64,000 nucleotides of DNA from Ilumatobacteraceae bacterium. GTDB lineage: Bacteria; Actinomycetota; Acidimicrobiia; Acidimicrobiales; Ilumatobacteraceae. This document shows, piece by piece, positions 1-10,548 of this stretch (position 1 is its first letter; each line of letters starts with the position of its first letter). The notes under the pieces were generated by a model. It was not told the origin of the DNA, did no database searches, and saw only the letters and a list, made by a program, of their open reading frames with translations. A program made the position numbers and the translations under genes. Where the stretch lies: positions 16,200-80,199 of the forward strand of contig CAVPJT010000004.1 of assembly GCA_963705485.1 (NCBI GenBank). The letters run 5' to 3'.

Positions 1-1811
1 ACAACCAGTACGACCCGGCCCTGTACGAAGGGACGACACCGGTCGAGCCGCCGGCAACCCCCGAGGAGGGCTACCACCTCACCGAGGACCTCGCCGACCG
101 TGCGGTCGGCTGGATCCGTCAGCAGAAGGCGCTGATGCCCGACAAGCCGTTCTTCGCCTACTTCGCTCCGGGCGCGACCCATGCACCGCATCACGTTCCC
201 CAAGAGTGGGCCGACAAGTACCGGGGCCGCTTCGACGACGGTTGGGATGTGCAGCGCGAGCGCACCTTCGCCAAGCAGAAGGAACTCGGGGTGATCCCCG
301 CCGACGCCGAACTCACCGCTCGCCACGACGAGATCACGGCGTGGGACGACATGCCCGACGACTTGAAGCCGGTGCTCGCACGACAGATGGAGGTCTACGC
401 CGGCTTCCTCGAGCACACCGATCATCACGTGGGTCGGGTGATCGACGCGATCGACGACCTCGGCGTGCTCGACAACACGCTGATCTACTACATCGTCGGC
501 GACAACGGCGCGTCCGCCGAGGGCACGATGAACGGCGCGTTCAACGAGATGGCCAACTTCAACGGCATGGCCGCCCTCGAGACGATCGAGTTCATGCAGT
601 CGAAGATGGACGAGTTCGGTTCGCCCGAGTCCTACAACCACTACTCGGTCGGCTGGGCCTGGGCGATGAACACCCCGCTGCAGTGGACCAAGCAGGTCGC
701 CTCGCACTGGGGCGGGACGCGCAATGGCACGATCGTCCACTGGCCGAACGGCATCGAAGAGAAGGGTGGCCTCCGCGATCAGTTCACGCACGTGATCGAC
801 CTCGCCCCCACGATCCTCGAAGCGGCCGGGCTGCCGGAGCCGACGATGGTGAACGGCGTGCAGCAGTCGCCGATGGAGGGCACGAGCATGCTCTACACGT
901 TCAACCTGCCCGACGAGCCGGAGCGGCACGATCTGCAGTACTTCGAGATGTTCGCCAACCGTGGGATCTACCACCAGGGGTGGAGCGCCGTCACGAAGCA
1001 TCGCACGCCATGGGTCATGGTCGGTGGTGACCTTCCGCCGTTCGACGACGACGTCTGGGAGTTGTACGACGGAAGCACGGACTTCAGCCAGGCACGCGAT
1101 CTCTCGGCGGAACATCCCGAGCTGTTGGCGAAACTCCAACGGCTCTGGCTGATCGAGGCGACCAAGTACAACGTCCTGCCGATGGACGACCGCACCAGCG
1201 AGCGACTGGAACCGTCGATGGCGGGCCGACCGACACTGATCCGCGGCAATTCGCAGCTGTTCTTCCCCGGGATGGGGCGGCTGTCGGAGAACAGCGTCGT
1301 CAGCATCAAGAACAAGTCGTTCTCGGTCACCGCGGACCTCGACGTCCCCACCGGCGGCGCTTCCGGTGTGATCATCGCCCAGGGTGGCCGCTTCGGTGGC
1401 TGGGCCGTCTACGCGACCGATGGCCTGCTCAAGTTCACCTACAACGTGCTGGGTATCCAACTCTTCACGGTCACGGCAACCGAACCGATCCCCGAGGGTC
1501 ACCATCAGGTGCGCGTCGAGTTCGCCTACGACGGCGGCGGTCTCGCGAAGGGTGGCGACGTCACGCTGTACCACGACGGCAACGCCGTGGGCACCGGACG
1601 TGTCGAAGCGACGCAGCCGATGGTCTTCTCGGCCGACGAGACGACCGACATCGGTTACGAGTCCGGAACGTGTGTCTCACCGGACTACACCGTCGAGACG
1701 AGCCGCTTCACCGGCAAGCTCCACTGGGTCCAGATCGATCTCGGCGACGACGATCACGACCACTTCATCGATCCCGACGAACGACTCAGAATCGCCATGG
1801 CGCGCCAGTAG
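1..1811 (+). CDS. arylsulfatase (S1 sulfatase family), 5' end outside the window
   Basis: Frame 3 is open from nt 3 (NQYDPALYEGTTPVEPP...LMPDKPFFAYFAPGATHAPHHVPQEWADKYRGRFDDGWD). GDNGASAEG and the overall layout are typical of arylsulfatases. Stop at 1809-1811. Confidence 0.85.
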   Translation, partial: NQYDPALYEGTTPVEPPATPEEGYHLTEDLADRAVGWIRQQKALMPDKPFFAYFAPGATHAPHHVPQEWADKYRGRFDDGWDVQRERTFAKQKELGVIPADAELTARHDEITAWDDMPDDLKPVLARQMEVYAGFLEHTDHHVGRVIDAIDDLGVLDNTLIYYIVGDNGASAEGTMNGAFNEMANFNGMAALETIEFMQSKMDEFGSPESYNHYSVGWAWAMNTPLQWTKQVASHWGGTRNGTIVHWPNGIEEKGGLRDQFTHVIDLAPTILEAAGLPEPTMVNGVQQSPMEGTSMLYTFNLPDEPERHDLQYFEMFANRGIYHQGWSAVTKHRTPWVMVGGDLPPFDDDVWELYDGSTDFSQARDLSAEHPELLAKLQRLWLIEATKYNVLPMDDRTSERLEPSMAGRPTLIRGNSQLFFPGMGRLSENSVVSIKNKSFSVTADLDVPTGGASGVIIAQGGRFGGWAVYATDGLLKFTYNVLGIQLFTVTATEPIPEGHHQVRVEFAYDGGGLAKGGDVTLYHDGNAVGTGRVEATQPMVFSADETTDIGYESGTCVSPDYTVETSRFTGKLHWVQIDLGDDDHDHFIDPDERLRIAMARQ

Positions 1812-1850
1812 CGCGGTGAGCCGCACCGCCGGTACGGCGCAGGTCGTTCG

Positions 1851-2142
1851 ATGTCGCCCGCCCCGCTCCCGTTCCCGGGTCTCAACATCGAGAACTTCCC
1901 GTTCTTCGCGGTGATCGCTGCGACGGCAGATGGGTCGACGATCGTGCACGACTGGGTCTACGAGAACCGAGCGATCTACCCCACCGGCGCTGCGCCCGGC
2001 TGTCGTCATGCTGCTCGCGATGATCGCCACGCCAGGCACGTCGGTGCTGCGCAACATCTACGCCAGCAACTGCGGCCACGAGGATCTGCCTGACCGCCTC
2101 GATTCGGTCGGCGCCAACATCGAGGTCTTCCGCGGCGGCTGA
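1851..2142 (+). pseudogene. murA: 3' remnant of UDP-N-acetylglucosamine 1-carboxyvinyltransferase (MurA/EPT family), frameshifted with an internal deletion
   Basis: Two overlapping frames read FPGLNIENFPFFAVIAATADGSTIVHDWVYENRAIY and ALRPAVVMLLAMIATPGTSVLRNIYASNCGHEDLPDRLDSVGANIEVFRGG*. These match the MurA C-terminus (FPTDMQAQF..AEGT..ETVFENRF ... [48 protein letters not shown]). The N-terminal ~300 codons are absent. Confidence 0.6.
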
Positions 2143-2181
2143 GCCGCCGGGCGCCGCAGCTGCTCAGACGACTCAGGCGAC

Positions 2182-2589
2182 TCAGGCGGTGCGGGCGATG
2201 TGAAACGCGGGGATGACGCGAGGTGCGGCCGACGTGATGTACTCGCCGAACTGCGGCATCAACTCGGCCTGGGCGCGCAACTTCGCCTGCCCCTCGTCTT
2301 CGGGCAGTTCGGTGACCGTGGCGGTGAAGGACTCGGTGCCGTACTCGACGGTGATCTCCGGATGTGCCTTGAGGTTGTAGTACCAGTCGGGGCTCGTTGG
2401 GGCCCCACCTTTCGACGCAAAGACGTACAGGTCGTCGCCCTCGACGAACGCCACGAGCGGGGTCTCGCGGAGCTCACCTGACTTGGCGCCGATCGTGTGC
2501 AAGATGACCAGCGGCGCGTCGCCGAACTGAGCGGCCTTGCCGCCGTTGGCACGGAACTCGGCGATGATCTGGGCGTTCCAATCGTTCAT
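2182..2589 (-). CDS. deazaflavin (F420)-dependent nitroreductase family protein (Ddn-like, DUF385)
   Basis: MNDWNAQIIAEFRANGGK..FGDAPLVILHTIGAKSGELRETPLVAF..DLYVFASKGGAPTSPDWYYNLKAHPEITVEYG is the family signature. I prefer the ATG at 2589 over the upstream ORF start at 2625. Confidence 0.8.
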   Translation of the reverse strand: MNDWNAQIIAEFRANGGKAAQFGDAPLVILHTIGAKSGELRETPLVAFVEGDDLYVFASKGGAPTSPDWYYNLKAHPEITVEYGTESFTATVTELPEDEGQAKLRAQAELMPQFGEYITSAAPRVIPAFHIARTA

Positions 2590-2654
2590 TCCGCTGATGC
2601 TACCCAGCAATCCTTGCGAACGCAAATGATTATTGCAGTGTAATTATGTAATTA
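2590..2654. promoter_or_regulatory. AT-rich divergent intergenic region with short repeats
   Basis: An unusually AT-rich stretch in a GC-rich genome. It contains TTGCG-AA-CGCAA (2614-2625) and a tandem GTAATTA-t-GTAATTA (2640-2654), and lies between divergent gene starts. Confidence 0.3.
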
Positions 2655-3188
2655 ATGACTAGAGTGTCCGCCATGACCACCGCTGATTCCACCATCACCT
2701 CCTGGCTCCGCGGGCGTCTCCCCGACGCCTGGACCGACGAGCCCGCCCAGATCACCATCGACCGTGACGAGATCACGATCATGCTCGCGGTGGCGCCACC
2801 TGAACTCGGCGCTGATGCAACCGATGCCGATCGCGCCGAAGCCCTCGCGGGACGAGCCACGGGCTTCCGAGAGGAGACGCGCGAGGCCCGGATGCAGATC
2901 GCACGAGAGGCCGAGCACCGCTACGACCGCAAGGTCGCCTGGGGTGTCGTCGTCGGGGAGCGAAGCGAACTCTTCACCCACCTCGCCGTGCCGGTGATGA
3001 CCCGGCTGCGTCAACCCGAACGGATGGTGCTCGACACCCTCGTGGCCGCGAACGTTGCTCGGTCCCGAGCTGACGCCCTGGCCTGGTGCGTGCGTCTCGT
3101 CGGGCAGCACACCGGCGACTGGCTGACTGAGTTGCGCGATGCGATGCAGGCCGTCGAGCGACTACGCGCCGAGGGGCCCGCCGCTTGA
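2655..3188 (+). CDS. hypothetical protein
   Basis: A 177-aa ORF with protein-like composition (alternative ATG at 2673). I recognise no domain. Confidence 0.5.
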   Translation: MTRVSAMTTADSTITSWLRGRLPDAWTDEPAQITIDRDEITIMLAVAPPELGADATDADRAEALAGRATGFREETREARMQIAREAEHRYDRKVAWGVVVGERSELFTHLAVPVMTRLRQPERMVLDTLVAANVARSRADALAWCVRLVGQHTGDWLTELRDAMQAVERLRAEGPAA

Positions 3189-4300: not shown

Positions 4301-4337
4301 CAGGACCCGACCAGCGCCGAGCGGCCCTCGAGCCGGG

Positions 4338-5191
4338 TCAGGTAGTGGTCGACGTCGTAGGACTGTCGTCGCCGGTCAGGTAGCGCCAGAGCTTCGAGCG
4401 TTGGACCTGCTCGTTGCGGTAGTCGGTGATGCTCATCCACGGCTGCATCGTCCGCAGGATCTGCGCCACGCTGTCGGGGAGCATCCGAGCGAAGACGTGA
4501 TCCGACGGTGGGTTCTGCAGTTCCGGCGAGGTCGTCGGTGTTCCAGAGGCGAACCTGCGGCACGGTCGGGTTGAGCCGCACCTTGTGCATCCAGCGGTCG
4601 CCGTCGCCAGGGTTCGGTTGGCCGGCGTGCCACAGCCCGTGGTGGAACACGACCACCGTGCCGGCGGGACCCGAGAACTGTTGCTCGCCGACGATGTGCT
4701 GGTACCGATCGAGGCCGGACGACCGGACTCGACGCAGGTGGCTGCCCGGCACGAATCTCGTGCCGCCCTCACCTGGTGCCACGTCGTGCGGATACCAGAA
4801 CAGCTGGACGTCGAAAGTCGGTGTCGGGCGAGTCGGTGATCGCGTCCACGTGCAGCGGCTGGGTGTAGGTGGAATGCGGCTGCAGGTGGTGGGTGAAGTC
4901 GTGGTCGAAGGTCGGGCTGGCGCCGACGAACGACTCGATGATCCCCGGCATCTGCGGCAGGCGCAGGTAGTCGCCGATCGCCGACGGCGGCGGGTAGCAC
5001 TCGTCGAGCGGTGTCCCGGTGTGCGGGCGGCTTGAGTCCGTCGGGTCCGAAACGCTCGAGTTCGAGGCGACGCATCTCGTCGATGCCACGTTCGTTGATC
5101 TCGGCGGCACGACTGCCTCGAAGCGGATGAACCCGTTGGCGACGAACTCGGCCATCTGCCGTGTCGTCAACCGGTGATCGGTACTCCCCAT
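4338..5191 (-). pseudogene. phytanoyl-CoA dioxygenase (PhyH) family protein, at least 4 frame switches
   Basis: The reading path runs across three frames. It reads MGSTDHRLTTRQMAEFVANGFIRFEAVVP / AEINERGIDEMRRLELERFGPDGLKPPAH / TGTPLDECYPPPSAIGDYLRLPQMPGIIESFVG..HVDAITDSP / GGTRFVPGSHLRRV..GTVVVFHHGLWHAGQPNPGDGDRWMHKVR / PPSDHVFARMLPDSVAQILRTMQPWMSITDYRNEQVQRSKLWRYLTG. Confidence 0.75.
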
Positions 5192-5253
5192 CGCCAGAGT
5201 GTGGCATGTGTGTCAACTGGGGTCAGACCCCAGTTGACACGCCGACGCGCAAC

Positions 5254-5580
5254 TCAGCCGGCCGCGTCGTCGCGAGCCAGCCTCACTCGGACGCCGATCG
5301 CCGCGGTCACCTGGTAGCCGGCGAGGTAGCGATCCTCCTCGTTCTCGCCGCCCCAGTAGCCGTACTCGAGATTCTCGCGGGCGAACTGTCGGCACGGCTG
5401 ACGAACGACGCAGGTGTCGCACAGCTTCGGCGCCTTGGCTTCGCGCCGGGCCCGCGCCTGGGGCCGTTCGGCGACCTTGCCGAAGAACAACTCGAGCTGG
5501 CCCTTGCACGCTGCGTACTCCTGCCACTCGACGCCTCGGGGCAGCGGCGTCTCGATCTCGGGGAGTTCGACGGCACTCAT
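5254..5580 (-). CDS. WhiB family transcriptional regulator
   Basis: Four Cys in the WhiB pattern (AACKGQ...LCDTCVVRQPC) followed by the GYWGGENEEDR turn and basic tail. Confidence 0.9.
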   Translation of the reverse strand: MSAVELPEIETPLPRGVEWQEYAACKGQLELFFGKVAERPQARARREAKAPKLCDTCVVRQPCRQFARENLEYGYWGGENEEDRYLAGYQVTAAIGVRVRLARDDAAG

Positions 5581-5669
5581 GCGGCCACCTCGCCGGATGC
5601 GGTGGTTGGCGGTGTGGGGGTGGTGCTGATGCGGATGGTGGTCATCGACGAAGATCCTTTCGGTGACGG

Positions 5670-5705
5670 GGGTCCGGCGCCGACGGGAGGATCGGCGCCG
5701 GACCC
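5670..5705 (-). terminator. GC-rich hairpin just downstream of the rhodopsin stop codon
   Basis: A perfect 14-bp inverted repeat, GGGTCCGGCGCCGA (5670-5683) / TCGGCGCCGGACCC (5692-5705), with an 8-nt loop. It starts 13 nt after the stop at 5719-5721. There is no U-tract. Confidence 0.5.
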
Positions 5706-5718
5706 GATTCAGGGGAGG

Positions 5719-6537
5719 TCAGCTCGATGCGAGTTCGCTCGCATCGTCGGGGACGATCAGCTCGGGATCTTCGTCCATGGCAGGTGCGTAACCGTCGGCC
5801 CGGGACTTGGCGAGGGCGATGGCCAACACCAGGAGTCCGAACAACGGCTTGGCGAGCACGTCGGCGATCGAGTAGCCGACCTGGCGGACGACCTCGGCCG
5901 TGGCTTCGTCGTTGATGATGCTCGGGGCCATGTAGGCCAGCGGGTACACGCCCCACGTCGCGAGCACGATGTAGCGGAGGCCGTCGACGAGCTTGCGGAC
6001 CTGTGGGCTCTGGCGGTCGAGCGACTTGCCGAGCTCGACGAAGAGCACGTACAGGATGTAGAGGAAGGGGATCGTCGAGGCGACGCCCCACACCGTGCGA
6101 GCGGTCGAGTCCGCCGCCGCGAGTTCGCCCGGCCAGCCGAGCAGGATCATCGCCACCGCAGCGCCCGTGAGTCGGACGAGGAGGCTCCGTGTGGTGCTCT
6201 TGTTGAGTTTGAGCACGATGACCAGCTCCGCCAGGAGGAGCGGCACCGTCAGCAGCCAGTCGACGTATCGGTAGCCCTCGTTGAAGGGTGCGCCGGTCTG
6301 GATGAACTCGCCGTCGACGAAGTCGAAGGCACTCGAGAACGAGTCGAAGATCCTGACGTAGTGGTAGAAGGCGATCGCCACGACGAGCGTGGACAGGGTG
6401 ACCGCCATGCGATGGCGGGGCGCCACCTTCGACCTGACGAGCAGGAAGAAGAGGAAGGCTGCGCCCATACAGGCGATGACGAACGAGAACGAGTTGTAGA
6501 CGAGGTTGAACTGGTTCTCACTCAGGACGAGATCCAT
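5719..6537 (-). CDS. microbial (type I) rhodopsin, xanthorhodopsin/actinorhodopsin-like light-driven proton pump
   Basis: FNEGYRYVDWLLTVPLLLAELVIVL gives the D/T/E motif with Leu at the spectral-tuning site. AFYHYV keeps the conserved His. YSIADVLAKPLFG carries the counter-ion Asp and the Schiff-base Lys. Seven hydrophobic helices are present. An AAGGAG Shine-Dalgarno sits 6 nt before the ATG at 6537. Confidence 0.9.
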   Translation of the reverse strand: MDLVLSENQFNLVYNSFSFVIACMGAAFLFFLLVRSKVAPRHRMAVTLSTLVVAIAFYHYVRIFDSFSSAFDFVDGEFIQTGAPFNEGYRYVDWLLTVPLLLAELVIVLKLNKSTTRSLLVRLTGAAVAMILLGWPGELAAADSTARTVWGVASTIPFLYILYVLFVELGKSLDRQSPQVRKLVDGLRYIVLATWGVYPLAYMAPSIINDEATAEVVRQVGYSIADVLAKPLFGLLVLAIALAKSRADGYAPAMDEDPELIVPDDASELASS

Positions 6538-6575
6538 GACGTGCTCCTTGCGGTAGGGCTGCTCGGGTGGCAACC

Positions 6576-6615
6576 GACACTGCAAGGTTAGCGATGTTTA
6601 GCAGTAATTAGCTCA
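6576..6615. promoter_or_regulatory. four 10-bp-phased direct repeats (candidate operator) in the rhodopsin/regulator divergent spacer
   Basis: GGTTAGCGAT GTTTAGCAGT AATTAGCTCA ATTCAGCACT. The TTAGC cores are at 6578, 6588 and 6598, and TCAGC is at 6608. The element lies in a locally AT-rich 115-bp spacer. Confidence 0.45.
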
Positions 6616-6652
6616 ATTCAGCACTAATAAAAATCACCGGTAGTGTGGCCCG

Positions 6653-7511
6653 GTGGACGACGAGCCCTTGGACCTCCAGCGCGCCGCCGACGAACTCGGT
6701 GTCCACTATCAGACCGCCTACCGGTGGGTTCGCACCGGCAAGTTGCCCGCGCAGCTCGTCGACGGCCGCTACCAGGTGACACGAGACGACATCGGCGACG
6801 ATCTCGGCTCGCCGGTCGGCACCGCAGGCGCCCACACCGCCGACCGCGAAACGGACGGCCCGCGCGGCCGAGCGCATGCACCGTGCGCTGGTCGAGGGAG
6901 ACGAGGCGACCGTTCGGACCATCGCCCACGGTCTCATCGACGAGGGGGCATCGATCGTCGACGTCATCCAGCAGGTGCTCGTCCCGCCGCTCGTCCGCAT
7001 CGGCGCCGACTGGCATGCCGGCTTGCTGACGATCTGGGTCGAGCATCGTGCGTCAGCGATCGTCGAGCGTCTCCTCGGCGGGATCGCGCCGAATCCGCGC
7101 GGCCGACGGCGGGGCACGGTGATGGTGGCCGCCGTCACGGGTGACCTGCATTCGTTGCCGTCATCGATGGCGGCCGTGGCGCTGCGCGCCGACAACTGGT
7201 GGGTGGAACACCTCGGCGCGAACATGCCACCCGACGAACTCGTCCGCTTCTGTGCCGAGCATCCGGTCGATGTGGCGGTGCTGTCGTCGACCAACCCCGA
7301 CACCGCCGCACTCGCCGCCGACACCGCTGACCGACTCCGCGCCGCGGGGGTCGGCGTGGTGCTCGGCGGTCCGGGCCGCACCCTCGACGATCTGCTCAGC
7401 GAGGTTCGGGCGGCTGCACGCCCGGTCGGCCGAGCACGGCTGACGAGCACGAGTACCGCCGGCGCCCGTCAGCCTGCCGGAGCCGTCAGCTCGTCTGGGT
7501 GCCCACCTTGA
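6653..7511 (+). pseudogene. HTH (excisionase/MerR-like) + cobalamin-binding domain regulator, CarH/LitR-like, with one frame switch near 6794
   Basis: The N-terminus LDLQRAADELGVHYQTAYRWVRTGKLPAQLVDGRYQVTRDDI is an HTH_17-type domain. After one extra base the frame continues ATISARR...MHRALVEGDEATVRTIAHGLIDEGASIVDVIQQVLVPPLVRIGADWHAGLLTIWVEHRAS (Wx9EH). It then reads VMVAAVTGDLHSLPSSMAAVALRADNWWVEHLGANMPPDEL..VDVAVLSS, a B12 Rossmann fold with the axial His. Confidence 0.75.
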
Positions 7512-8694
7512 GTTCGCGGAACGGCACACCGCGGTCGACCGACGGTTCGCGGGGCAGGCCCAGTACCCGATCGCCGATGATGTTGCGCTGGATCTCGTCG
7601 GTCCCGCCGGCGATGCTCGACTGGAAGCTGTTCAGCACGATGCGCTGCAGCTCGGCGCCGCTCTCGTCGTCGGGTCCCACGCCACCGACCCGGGTCCGGC
7701 GAACTCGAGCGCCATCTCGCGGACCTTCCAGGCGATGTTCGAGCCGAAGAGCTTGCCGAGCGATCCACCGGGGCCCGGGGTCTTGCCGGCCTTGAGCTCG
7801 TCACGGGTCTTCATCGCCACGAGCGACTTGCAGGTCTCCATCGACCAGATCTTCATCATCTGATCACGCACCACCGGGTCGTCGATCTTGCCGTTCGACT
7901 CGGCGGCCTTGCGGAGCATCTTGAAGTTCGGCTGGTTGATCTTGCCGGCGCCGGCGCCACCGATGGCGACACGCTCGTACATCAACATCGCGGTCGCGAG
8001 GTTCCACCCGTTGTTGAGATCGCCGATCAACCAGTCCTTCGGGATGCGGACGTCGCTGAAGAACACCTCGTTGAAGTGTGAGCCACCGTCGATCTGGTGG
8101 ATCGGGCGGATCTCGACGCCCGGAGCGCGCATGTCGAGGATGAACATGGAGATGCCGGCGTGCTTCACCTGGTCGGGGTCGGTGCGGGCCACGACGAGGC
8201 CGTAGTCGCTCTTGTGGGCGAGCGTGGTCCACACCTTCTGGCCGTTGATGACCCACTCGTCACCGTCGAGTTCGGCCTTGGTCTGCAGGCTCGCGACGTC
8301 GGAACCGGCGCCCGGCTCGGAGAACATCTGGCACCACATGGTCTTGCCGGAGATGTTGTCGGCGAGGAAGCGTTCCTTCTGCTCGTGGGTGCCGTACTCG
8401 GCGAGCATCGGCATGCACATGCCGTGGCTGATGATGAATTCGCTGTCGGGCATCGGGTAGTTGCCCTTGACCTCGCGCCAGATCTTCTCGTGGGCGAGGG
8501 TCTGGCCGCCGCCGCCGTACTCGGCGGGCACGGGCAGTCCGGCGAGACCGGCCTCGGCGGCTGCAGCGAGGAATGCCTTCTGGTCGTCGATGCTTCGCGG
8601 CCGGCTTGGTGCCGTACTGCTCCATGAAGTCGACGCACTTCTGGCGGAACTCGGCGGCTTCGGCGTCGGTCAATCCGGTGGCGGTGTCGGTCAT
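7486..8694 (-). pseudogene. acyl-CoA dehydrogenase, 2 frame switches (~8590 and ~7680)
   Basis: MTDTATGLTDAEAAEFRQKCVDFMEQYGTKPAA / SIDDQKAFLAAAAEAGLAGLPVPAEYGGGGQT..WCQMFSEPGAGSDVASLQTKAELDGDEWVINGQKVWTT.. / DDESGAELQRIVLNSFQSSIAGGTDEIQRNIIGDRVLGLPREP. Confidence 0.85.
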
Positions 8695-8756
8695 GTCATG
8701 TCCTCCAAGACGGTGGTCGCGAGAGATTGTGCAACGCGCAACAATCTGCAGTTGCA

Positions 8757-8780
8757 ATACTGTATGGCATCGTACAGTAT
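8757..8780. promoter_or_regulatory. perfect palindrome, candidate MarR operator
   Basis: ATACTGTA-tggcatcg-TACAGTAT lies in the divergent spacer between the acyl-CoA dehydrogenase (start 8694) and the marR-thiolase pair. Confidence 0.4.
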
Positions 8781-8861
8781 GTGTCCACACGTGTCGCTAC
8801 CGAACCGTCACACCGTGCCGGGTCAAACGTGACCAGTTCGCCGCCGACAGACACGACCCCG

Positions 8862-9383
8862 ATGAGCAACCTCACCACCCACGAACTCGACTCGCCGCCG
8901 TGGCTCCGTGTGGAGTCCACGCTGATGGCGACGGCACGACTCGTGCGAGTCGCGTTCGACACCCGGCTCGCTCCGCTCGATCTGAACCTCACCCAGGCGT
9001 CGCTGCTCGGCTACGTCCACGAGTTCGGCGCGACCACCCAGACCGATCTCGCCGACCATCTCGGGATCGGTCGTGCCGCCATCGGCTCGGTGATCGACCG
9101 CCTGCAGGCCCGCGGACTCGTGGAACGTCAACCGAAGCCCGACGACCGGCGGGTGTGGCTCGTCGCCATCACCGACGCCGGCGCGGAGCTGGCCGCACAG
9201 ATCAACGACGTCGACCAGGTGCTGCGCGCCGAGCTTCGCCACGGACTCGGCCGCGAGGAACGTCAGGCGCTCGCCTGGGTGATGACTCGCCTCCAGCAGA
9301 ACCTCGCCACGGCCATCGCCAAGACACCCGTCTCAACCCTCTCAACCACCATCTCAACCACACCAACAGGAGAAACCCAATGA
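8862..9383 (+). CDS. MarR family transcriptional regulator
   Basis: LNLTQASLLGYVHEFGATTQTDLADHLGIGRAAIGSVIDRLQARGLVERQPKPDDRRVWLVAITDAG is a winged-helix MarR core. The start is ambiguous (ATG 8862 or GTG 8829). The stop overlaps the thiolase start (ATGA at 9380-9383). Confidence 0.85.
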   Translation: MSNLTTHELDSPPWLRVESTLMATARLVRVAFDTRLAPLDLNLTQASLLGYVHEFGATTQTDLADHLGIGRAAIGSVIDRLQARGLVERQPKPDDRRVWLVAITDAGAELAAQINDVDQVLRAELRHGLGREERQALAWVMTRLQQNLATAIAKTPVSTLSTTISTTPTGETQ

Positions 9384-10548
9384 CCGAAGCAGTGATCGTC
9401 GACGCCATCCGCACGCCGGGCGGCAAGCGCAACGGCAAGCTCAAGGACCAGCACCCCGCTGCGCTCGCCGCGCAGGTCCTCAAGGCCCTCGAGGAGCGCA
9501 ACGGCCTCGACCCCGCCATGGTCGACGACGTCATCATGGGCTGCGTGATGCAGGTCGGTGAGCAGTCGCTCAACATCGGCCGCAACGCCGTGCTCGCCGC
9601 CGGCTGGCCCGAAGAGGTCCCGTCGACCACGATCGACCGCCAGTGCGGCTCGAGCCAGCAGTCGATGCACTTCGCCGCGCAGGGCGTGATGGCCGGCGCC
9701 GTACGACGTCGTCGTCGCCGCCGGTGTCGAAGTGATGACCCGCACCCCGATGGGCGCCTCGATCGTGCAGGGCATGGGTTTCCCGTTCCCGCAGGAGCAG
9801 CTCGACCGCTACGCCGAGACCGGCCTGCCGCCGCAGGGCATCGGTGCCGACATGATCGCCGCCGAGTACGGCATCACCCGTGAAGATCTCGACGAGTTCG
9901 GCGCCACCAGCCAGCAGCGCGCCGCCGTCGGCGCGCGACGAAGGTCGTTTCGAGAACGAGATCATCCCGATCGAGGTCGAGATCGACGGCCAGACCGAGA
10001 CGATGACCGCCGACGAAGGCATCCGGGAGGGCACCACCGCCGAGACGCTGGCCAAGCTGAAGCCGGCCTTCAAGGAGGACGGCGTGATCACCGCCGGCAA
10101 CTCCTCGCAGATCTCCGACGGTGCGTCCGCGGTGCTCATCATGAGCAGGGAGAAGGCCGATGAGCTCGGGATGAAGCCTCGTGCCCGCTTCCACGCGTTC
10201 GCCGTCACCGGCGCCGACCCGGTCACGATGCTCAAGGGCCCGATCCCGGCGACCAAGAAGATCCTGGAGAAGACCGGGATCAGCATCGACGACATCGATC
10301 TGTTCGAGGTCAACGAGGCCTTCGCCTCGGTCGTGCTGGCCTGGCAGAAGGAGACCGGCGCCGACATGAGCAAGGTCAACGTCAACGGTGGCGCCATCGC
10401 CCTCGGCCACCCGCTCGGCGCCTCGGGCACCAAGCTGATGGCGACGCTGCTCAACGAGCTCGAGCGCACCGGTGGCCGCTACGGCCTGCAGGTGATGTGT
10501 GAGGGCGGCGGCATGGCCAACGCCACCATCATCGAACGCCTCGACTGA
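9380..10548 (+). pseudogene. acetyl-CoA C-acyltransferase (thiolase), 2 frame switches (~9700 and ~9935)
   Basis: MTEAVIVDAIRTPGGKRNGKLKD..IDRQCGSSQQSMHFAAQGVMAGA / VMTRTPMGAS..ITREDLDEFGATSQQRAA / EGRFENEIIPIEV..NSSQISDGASAVLIMS..NEAFASVVLAW..NVNGGAIALGHPLGASG..MCEGGGMANATIIERLD. Confidence 0.85.

Follow-up and report, generated by a model that had tools for sequence, protein, structure and literature searches.

A predicted B12-dependent light switch for a proton-pumping rhodopsin and its own gene in an Ilumatobacteraceae genome

CarH and LitR, described in Thermus thermophilus, Myxococcus xanthus, and Bacillus megaterium, are adenosylcobalamin (AdoCbl)-dependent, light-sensing repressors of carotenoid genes. 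Light induction of rhodopsin has been seen in some lineages and the sensor has rarely been identified; to our knowledge, little is known of how heterotrophic bacteria time the production of rhodopsin. We analyzed computationally a stretch of 64,000 nucleotides (nt) from an Ilumatobacteraceae bacterium (GenBank assembly GCA_963705485.1, contig CAVPJT010000004.1, positions 16,200-80,199 of the forward strand), hereafter the window, whose own coordinates are used throughout. In the window a rhodopsin gene stands back to back with the gene of a regulator that joins a helix-turn-helix (HTH) domain to a B12-binding module. We propose that the locus is probably a light switch, in which a CarH-like AdoCbl dark-state repressor built on an HTH_17 domain would act on a distinct operator and gate both the rhodopsin gene and itself.

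CarH and LitR are defined by a W-x9-E-H motif, and the classic B12 motif is ExHxxG-x41-SxV/T-x22-27-GG, which contains the lower axial His (PMC8156234). CarH tetramers bind three (Thermus) or four (Bacillus) tandem direct repeats that lie over the -35 and/or -10 elements and exclude RNA polymerase; these operator repeats are 11 bp long, read nAnnTnnACAn, and overlap the promoter (PMC8156234). Four elements, GxxW, EH, GxxH, and GxxxP, have been proposed to separate light-responsive from enzyme-type B12 domains (PMC11796333). Mining with this signature lists HTH-fused light-responsive B12 domains, whose targets are not named. It also led to the B12 photoreceptors closest to our regulator: the photocobilins SasPcob (8J2W/8J2X) and AbPcob (8J2Y), and CtMerR (8JBS). 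A computational survey of photoglobin-containing proteins lists fusions of HTH_17 with B12-binding_2/B12-binding and notes WhiB in their operons; it names no operator or target and leaves rhodopsin unmentioned (PMC8717448). The paper naming acidirhodopsins mentions no regulator, and JGI automatic annotation labels some relatives of the regulator "light-induced transcriptional regulator". In the full-text literature, with subscription journals outside coverage, we found no paper linking a B12 photoreceptor (CarH, LitR) to a rhodopsin gene, in agreement with a preliminary description of this DNA that knew of no such characterized circuit.

The divergent pair and its control elements are arranged as follows.

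5719-6537, minus strand: rhodopsin gene of the xanthorhodopsin clade, an intact open reading frame (ORF) of 272 amino acids (aa) with its ATG at 6537
6585-6590, minus strand: hexamer TAACCT, predicted -10 of the leftward (rhodopsin) promoter, overlapping operator repeat 1
6588-6627, plus strand: operator, four tandem 10-bp direct repeats TTAGCGATGT TTAGCAGTAA TTAGCTCAAT TCAGCACTAA
6641-6646, plus strand: hexamer TAGTGT, predicted -10 of the regulator promoter, 6 nt ahead of the GTG
6653-7443, plus strand: regulator gene with the domains HTH_17, B12-binding_2, and B12-binding, GTG start at 6653, stop TGA at 7441-7443

The spacer between the two genes measures 115 bp (6538-6652), as previously given. 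Its repeats have the form TTAGY-N5 and were first noticed on comparing the sequences upstream of all regulators. The pattern occurs a single time in the 64-kb window, with 0 occurrences expected by chance. Tandem Repeats Finder found nothing in 6500-6700 because merely 5 of each 10 bases are conserved. We surveyed relatives of the regulator, one genome per species (470 relatives), and classified the neighborhoods of the best 80. These 80 are nearly all metagenome-assembled genomes (MAGs) of Ilumatobacteraceae/Acidimicrobiales, plus one Nocardioides and one Propionibacteriales MAG. With the operator scored out of 20 and a threshold of at least 16, it was present upstream of the regulator in 68/80 of these species loci, always in the same orientation and at a fixed distance. 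Three loci, L052, L064, and L084 (about 6887-6961), carry six tandem TTAGY repeats, not four.

When all fetched flanks (~1 Mb) were scanned on both strands at the same threshold, only two operator sites lay outside the regulators' own upstream regions. One, in L077, is directly upstream of a rhodopsin gene that is separated from the regulator, and its relative orientation is that of the divergent pairs. The other, in L066 (5999-6033, minus strand; 20/20), is directly upstream of an ORF for a 167-aa membrane protein, 2.3 kb from the regulator. A degenerate copy precedes the separated rhodopsin of L043, and copies scoring 17-19 of 20 lie upstream of rhodopsins without an adjacent regulator in L131, L132/L133, and L167; in L131 and L167 there is no regulator within 3 kb. 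The operator is also absent in 14/17 rhodopsin loci that have no regulator nearby. Because repeats, regulator, and rhodopsin co-occur, we regard them as one functional unit, and this co-occurrence is our main argument. The 167-aa ORF of L066 matches no Pfam family and is a further candidate member of the regulon.

Among the best 80 regulator loci, rhodopsin is divergent and 130-170 bp away in 47 and downstream on the same strand in 3. A WhiB gene is the divergent partner in 10, other neighbors are found in 16, and 4 loci are too short to tell; rhodopsin is thus beside the regulator in 50/76 informative loci. We also took the reverse view and started from rhodopsin: of the 80 metagenomic loci most similar in this protein, 67 were informative, and the regulator was present in 50/67 and absent in 17. 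The pairing that the preliminary description had wished to see sought in relatives is therefore conserved both ways. Environmental genomes that carry it number in the hundreds and come from soil, lakes, and sea, and the arrangement of the pair is kept while the flanking genes differ between loci. (Comparison of the loci with the window by tblastx was swamped by high-GC noise and served only to locate the end of collinearity.)

These surveys bear on the simplest alternative: the two genes would be neighbors by inherited synteny only, and the repeats would serve autoregulation of the regulator without any effect on rhodopsin. Most loci do come from one family, Ilumatobacteraceae, with broadly conserved gene order. 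But the pair persists amid changing flanks and is also found in the Nocardioides/Propionibacteriales MAGs, displaced rhodopsins retain an operator copy in the same relative orientation, and the operator overlaps the conserved leftward -10. We find this alternative barely credible.

The promoter elements are conserved as well. In 55/67 loci, repeat 1 taken as its reverse complement together with three flanking bases gives TAAnnT (with an A at -3 of repeat 1), and 63/67 loci have a TAnnnT hexamer followed after 6-8 nt by an in-frame start codon for the regulator. The latter spacing, the usual signature of leaderless actinobacterial genes, implies that the predicted regulator mRNA is leaderless. 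In 56/63 loci the TAnnnT hexamer comes 18-23 nt downstream of the end of the operator core, so that repeat 4 occupies the -35 position of the regulator promoter. Given these hexamer positions, the repeats would therefore cover the leftward promoter core and the rightward -35. The predicted transcription start sites are near 6578 (leftward) and 6653 (rightward), and the regulator is the presumed binder of the repeats.

The same geometry can be read in another way. The photoreceptor and its operator may form a light-dependent activator, or repress one promoter while activating the other: the -35 position held by repeat 4 is used by class II activators too, MerR-superfamily proteins are often activators, and neither promoter shows a -35 consensus. 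However, repeat 1 overlaps the predicted leftward -10 and the repeats fill its upstream core, a geometry that blocks RNA polymerase. Moreover, those AdoCbl-CarH proteins that have been characterized repress in the dark and no longer bind DNA in the light. We therefore take dark repression as the presumed sign of regulation and consider activation distinctly unlikely.

The regulator protein contains the following elements.

6695-6745, plus strand: helix-turn-helix LGVHYQTAYRWVRTGKL, near-invariant in the family
7002-7046, plus strand: W-x9-E-H cap for the 5'-deoxyadenosyl group, WHAGLLTIWVEH, in the form G-x-x-W...E-H, with W at 7011-7013 and EH at 7041-7046
7140-7229, plus strand: G-D-L-H at 7140-7151 (lower axial His at 7149-7151) and G-A-N-M-P at 7215-7229, located by regular expression

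Pfam recognized HTH_17 (1.5e-8, 35.2 bits), B12-binding_2 (5e-12), and B12-binding (1e-12), bearing out the excisionase-type HTH and B12-binding modules described earlier. More than 1000 relatives share this architecture, typically with 255-270 aa. GVHYQTAY and W-V-R of the HTH are invariant in the closer family alignment (18 sequences); such a near-invariant HTH (GVHYQTAY.WVR) agrees with a DNA target that is itself conserved.

Does the B12 domain belong to the type that senses light? We aligned a profile of 18 family members with T. thermophilus CarH (TtCarH, sequence from plasmid pTT27) using hhalign. The two matched with 96.6% probability over 225 columns, winged helix included, and the W, the E-H, and the Rossmann His of the regulator fell on TtCarH W131, E141-H142, and H177. 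The preliminary description was thus right to place a W-x9-E-H at the CarH positions and to see the lower axial His kept in TGDLHSLP. The His that follows the Trp (WH) is also present, as in TtCarH W131-H132. In a HMMER alignment the same regulator residues paired with Trp61, Glu71-His72, and His108 of SasPcob, which according to the SasPcob paper contact the adenosyl group and the cobalt. All four elements of the SignatureFinder signature are present: GADW (7002-7013), EH (7041-7046), GDLH (7140-7151), and GANMP (7215-7229). The classic B12 motif was matched by regular expression as DLHSLP-x41-SST-x24-GG, in general form DxHxxP-x41-SxT-x24-GG, with Pro for Gly; SasPcob has a comparable H-A-L-P variant at the axial His. 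W, E-H, and the axial His are invariant over the 18 family sequences (identity down to 64%), and in a set of 37 members with identities as low as 30%, the W and the axial His hardly vary and E-H is in the majority consensus. An AF2 model of the regulator (pLDDT 83) gave photocobilin, CtMerR, and full-length TtCarH, including its DNA-bound form, as top Foldseek matches. From these likenesses we infer AdoCbl binding, light sensitivity, and the oligomeric state of the regulator.

A B12 domain might also report cobalamin availability rather than light, making the circuit a nutrient switch. The domain does share homology with its counterparts in methionine synthase and corrinoid proteins, and since repression of the CarH type depends on AdoCbl, the supply of cobalamin must in any case gate the system. 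But the W-x9-E-H and the four-element signature, marks of light-responsive domains, are all present, the nearest solved relatives are photoreceptors, and the targets and neighbors are light-related (rhodopsin, blh, photolyase-related genes, a BLUF cyclase). Cobalamin sensing in place of light sensing is highly improbable.

Taken together, these results suggest the following scheme for a light switch. The regulator would be an AdoCbl photoreceptor that acts like CarH and is built on an HTH_17 winged-helix domain. In the dark, the AdoCbl-loaded regulator would oligomerize, probably to a tetramer, and its DNA-binding domains would sit on the four 10-bp repeats at 6588-6627. Both genes would thus be repressed, because on the rhodopsin side the occupied repeats would span the -10 and the sequence upstream of it, and on the regulator side the -35 of the leaderless promoter. 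Light from UV to green would break the Co-C bond; the oligomer would then disassemble and leave the DNA, and both genes would be transcribed. In related genomes the same switch would drive a rhodopsin-blh operon or a WhiB-family gene, heading a small light regulon. The preliminary description had already seen a B12 photoreceptor placed to control the rhodopsin, a view now backed by the conserved pairing, by the operator over both promoters, and by the operator copies that accompany separated rhodopsins.

Several observations weigh against this scheme. About one third of the regulator loci lack rhodopsin, and a quarter of the related rhodopsin loci have neither regulator nor operator nearby. 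The DNA-binding domain is HTH_17, not MerR (MerR Pfam score of 13.3 bits versus a cutoff of 28.2), and the NCBIfam model TransRegCarH reaches 45.8 bits versus a cutoff of 400, on the B12 part only. Hhalign did pair the HTH_17 and CarH winged helices, which suggests a relation at the superfamily level only. The operator repeats, with a period of 10 bp, bear no likeness to nAnnTnnACAn; how CarH binds DNA therefore cannot simply be carried over. A consensus sigma-70 scan of 5200-7600 called no promoter, and there is no -35 consensus for either gene; the promoter calls therefore rest on conservation. Genes for retinal and carotenoid synthesis (blh, crtB, crtI) were not found in the 64-kb window by tblastn: a Blh of L131 and four Thermus queries (CrtB, CrtI, lycopene cyclase, and photolyase) all gave no match. 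Finally, the reading frame of the regulator is interrupted twice in the window.

We located both interruptions by comparison with a 99%-identical intact homolog, P0001. The first is an extra A at 6798 (GGCG[A]CGATC), which cuts the protein short after the HTH domain; the second is one surplus base within GTCGGCC (7425-7431). The extra base reported earlier near 6794 is therefore real, and the second insertion had been overlooked. Because of that second insertion the true stop is the TGA at 7441-7443: the ORF end at 7511 given in the preliminary description is a shifted-frame stop, and the final 27 residues of that reading are an artifact. With both surplus bases removed, the regulator has 262 aa, ends in ...RPVAEHG, and equals P0001 at 255/257 positions.

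The two one-base insertions, the first of them truncating the protein, could mean that the regulator is a decaying pseudogene in this genome and that rhodopsin is constitutive. We aligned intact orthologous proteins of loci L009 and L011 to the window and found at least 7 more frame breaks: two each in PhyH (phytanoyl-CoA dioxygenase), acyl-CoA dehydrogenase, and thiolase, and one in a further gene. With the regulator's two, this makes at least 9 breaks in ~9 kb. The split genes lie at the following positions.

1863-2139, 4306-5191, 7489-8790, and 9380-10545: split housekeeping genes (PhyH, acyl-CoA dehydrogenase, thiolase, and one more)

Breaks this dense in neighboring housekeeping genes are typical of assembly indel errors and do not fit a decay of the regulator, which indels aside matches its intact homolog with no other lesion. 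Thus the regulator's frame breaks are most likely assembly errors. We rejected pseudogene status on the density of neighboring breaks, and a constitutive rhodopsin beside a dead regulator is very unlikely. The window assembly appears indel-rich, and ORF-based readings therefore need care.

The WhiB family enters the picture at the other end of the rhodopsin gene.

5254-5580, minus strand: gene of a WhiB-family transcription factor (Pfam Whib 1.1e-11), downstream of rhodopsin
5670-5705, minus strand: perfect 14-nt inverted repeat with an 8-nt loop, beginning 14 nt past the rhodopsin stop, between rhodopsin and WhiB

The inverted repeat is likely a terminator without a U-tract. An intrinsic-terminator consensus scan of 5200-7600 called nothing, missing this hairpin because it has no T-run.

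The light switch might have served WhiB first: the regulator would be mainly an autoregulated light switch for WhiB, and rhodopsin a later insertion that borrows the leftward promoter as an accessory target. WhiB follows rhodopsin in many loci. In 10/76 loci (L010, L014, L019, L030, L031, L039, L055, L056, L063, and L070) rhodopsin is absent and WhiB itself is divergent to the regulator behind the same operator. The WhiB ATG of L010 lies 6 nt after the leftward -10, implying a transcript that would be leaderless, and WhiB has been noted in operons of actinobacterial B12-binding/photoglobin proteins (PMC8717448). On the other hand, the perfect 14-bp-stem hairpin parts rhodopsin from WhiB in the window, no operator precedes WhiB there, many paired loci have no WhiB nearby, and separated rhodopsins keep their own operator copy without WhiB. 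We consider rhodopsin as a mere accessory unlikely, and the proposal refines our explanation more than it opposes it.

WhiB in rhodopsin's place at 10 loci looks like a small light regulon. In ~10 related loci a Brp/Blh-like gene, whose product is of the retinal-forming beta-carotene dioxygenase type, lies immediately downstream of rhodopsin (L131 3912-4814, L167 3549-4568, L071, L124, L134, L137, L139, L140, L142, and L147). In this blh subclade the operator would control synthesis of apoprotein and chromophore together. The predicted regulon is thus wider than rhodopsin, including WhiB and, in some loci, blh. More broadly, we lean towards the view that HTH_17-B12 proteins are a distinct, widespread family of AdoCbl photoreceptor-repressors with their own TTAGY operator of four repeats, used as a direct light switch for rhodopsin (sometimes with blh) and WhiB in Acidimicrobiia and some Nocardioidaceae.

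Other genes were seen near the regulator. A BLUF plus adenylate/guanylate cyclase protein is divergent to it in L051 (5700-6830, minus strand), with no clear operator. In L132 a photolyase-related gene (1264-2898, plus strand) lies between regulator and rhodopsin. A 72-aa, probably two-helix membrane protein (MK.LPTSLRLKLPFV.AGF...GIFVG.WVPSIHSLG; no Pfam family) recurs as a divergent or adjacent neighbor, upstream of the regulator in L061, L066, L076, L082, L085, and L087, and also in L083 (7851-8093). Its gene has its own TTTAAC/TTTAGT repeat cluster and is often followed by that of a ~720-aa HEAT plus glycosyltransferase-1 protein.

We turn to the rhodopsin, whose key residues are encoded on the minus strand.

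6361-6363, minus strand: H59
6259-6261, minus strand: D93
6247-6249, minus strand: T97
6235-6237, minus strand: L101
6226-6228, minus strand: E104
6085-6087, minus strand: G151
5860-5862, minus strand: D226
5848-5850, minus strand: K230

The protein matches Pfam Bac_rhodopsin at 1.1e-39, and its six top PDB matches (psXR, GR, Kin4B8, thermophilic rhodopsin TR, 9hfk, and xanthorhodopsin XR 3ddl; 1e-82 to 6e-68) all belong to the xanthorhodopsin clade. The E-values were 1.6e-82 for psXR (9wfa) and 4e-76 for Gloeobacter rhodopsin (GR, 6nwd), versus ~1e-26 for proteorhodopsins; the xanthorhodopsin type first assigned to 5719-6537 therefore stands. In a residue-level alignment with GR, counted by hand, D93/T97/E104 correspond to D121/T125/E132 (the DTE motif), and D226/K230 to D253/K257, the counter-ion Asp and Schiff-base Lys in helix G, confirming the proton-pump residues named before. 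The helix-B His59 is GR H87, and G151 is GR G178, a position that we take to be the carotenoid keto-ring (antenna) site. Leu101 presumably occupies the position that gives green absorption in proteorhodopsin. We predict that the protein pumps protons as a DTE rhodopsin, absorbs green light, and possibly has a carotenoid antenna. In the paired rhodopsins of L026, L043, and L077, Phe replaces Gly at the carotenoid-ring site (W-F, not W-G), which would probably block antenna binding in these lineages.

The rhodopsin leader holds two further elements.

6544-6549, minus strand: ribosome-binding site AAGGAG, 6 nt ahead of the ATG, conserved in the leader alignment
6557-6575, minus strand: hairpin GGTTGC-CACCCGA-GCAGCC in the 5' leader, ~3 nt from the predicted mRNA 5' end

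Across ~100 related loci a hairpin lies 19-25 nt ahead of the start codon. A stem of at least 6 bp occurs at this position in 68% of 101 rhodopsin leaders versus 19% of shuffled sequences, and the stems vary by locus (GGTTGC/GCAACC, GTTCGCA/TGCGAAC, GCCGCA/TGCGGC, GGTGGC/GCCACC). The hairpin is found also in rhodopsin loci without the operator. A search of Rfam at permissive E-values over 5000-8000 gave no match, the leader hairpin included; it may be an mRNA-stabilizing 5' stem-loop.

As a hypothesis the locus is complete and testable, with a sensor, a 40-bp operator, a pair of promoters, and the target genes all named. If true, it would be the first case of a B12 photoreceptor that directly gates a retinal proton pump, and would carry B12 photoreception beyond carotenoid photoprotection into energy harvesting. 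Given the Leu tuning residue and the photochemistry of CarH, a response to green light is expected of both chromophores. Should repression require AdoCbl, as it does with CarH, the expression of rhodopsin would hinge on cobalamin supply as well. The compact regulator and its orthogonal operator could serve as a second green-light gene switch for high-GC hosts.

How does the locus compare with known systems? Xanthorhodopsin, Gloeobacter rhodopsin, and the actinorhodopsin-acidirhodopsin pumps share with the window protein the DTE motif, His59, the counter-ion Asp, the Schiff-base Lys, the ring-site Gly, and the green-tuning Leu, and psXR and GR align to it without gaps through helices A-C. The protein itself is not notably different from these pumps; the novelty lies in its transcriptional context.

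Of the solved B12 domains, those of photocobilins and CtMerR are the closest both in sequence (4.6e-19) and in fold, and they share the GxxW/EH/GxxH/GxxxP signature and the H-x-L-P variant. However, photocobilins lack a DNA-binding domain and have a biliverdin-binding globin at the C terminus, whereas the regulator has an N-terminal HTH and ends after the Rossmann fold. Photocobilin identity was rejected, as neither the corrected 262-aa protein nor its model contains a globin domain.

Like CarH/LitR, the regulator has an N-terminal winged helix, a four-helix bundle with W-x9-E-H and the adjacent His, and a Rossmann B12 domain with the axial His; its gene is divergent from the target, and tandem direct repeats lie over promoter elements, four of them as in B. 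megaterium CarH. Unlike CarH/LitR, it has a 10-bp TTAGY operator in place of the 11-bp nAnnTnnACAn, a Pro where the CarH motif has Gly, and, in place of crt genes, rhodopsin (with or without blh) and WhiB as family targets. The label "CarH-like" of the preliminary description thus holds for the W-x9-E-H, the axial His, and the fold; strict CarH/LitR membership was rejected because the family of the DNA-binding domain (HTH_17) and the operator differ. The photochemical module and the logic would thus be known ones, and what appears new is the DNA-binding domain, the operator, and the class of target.

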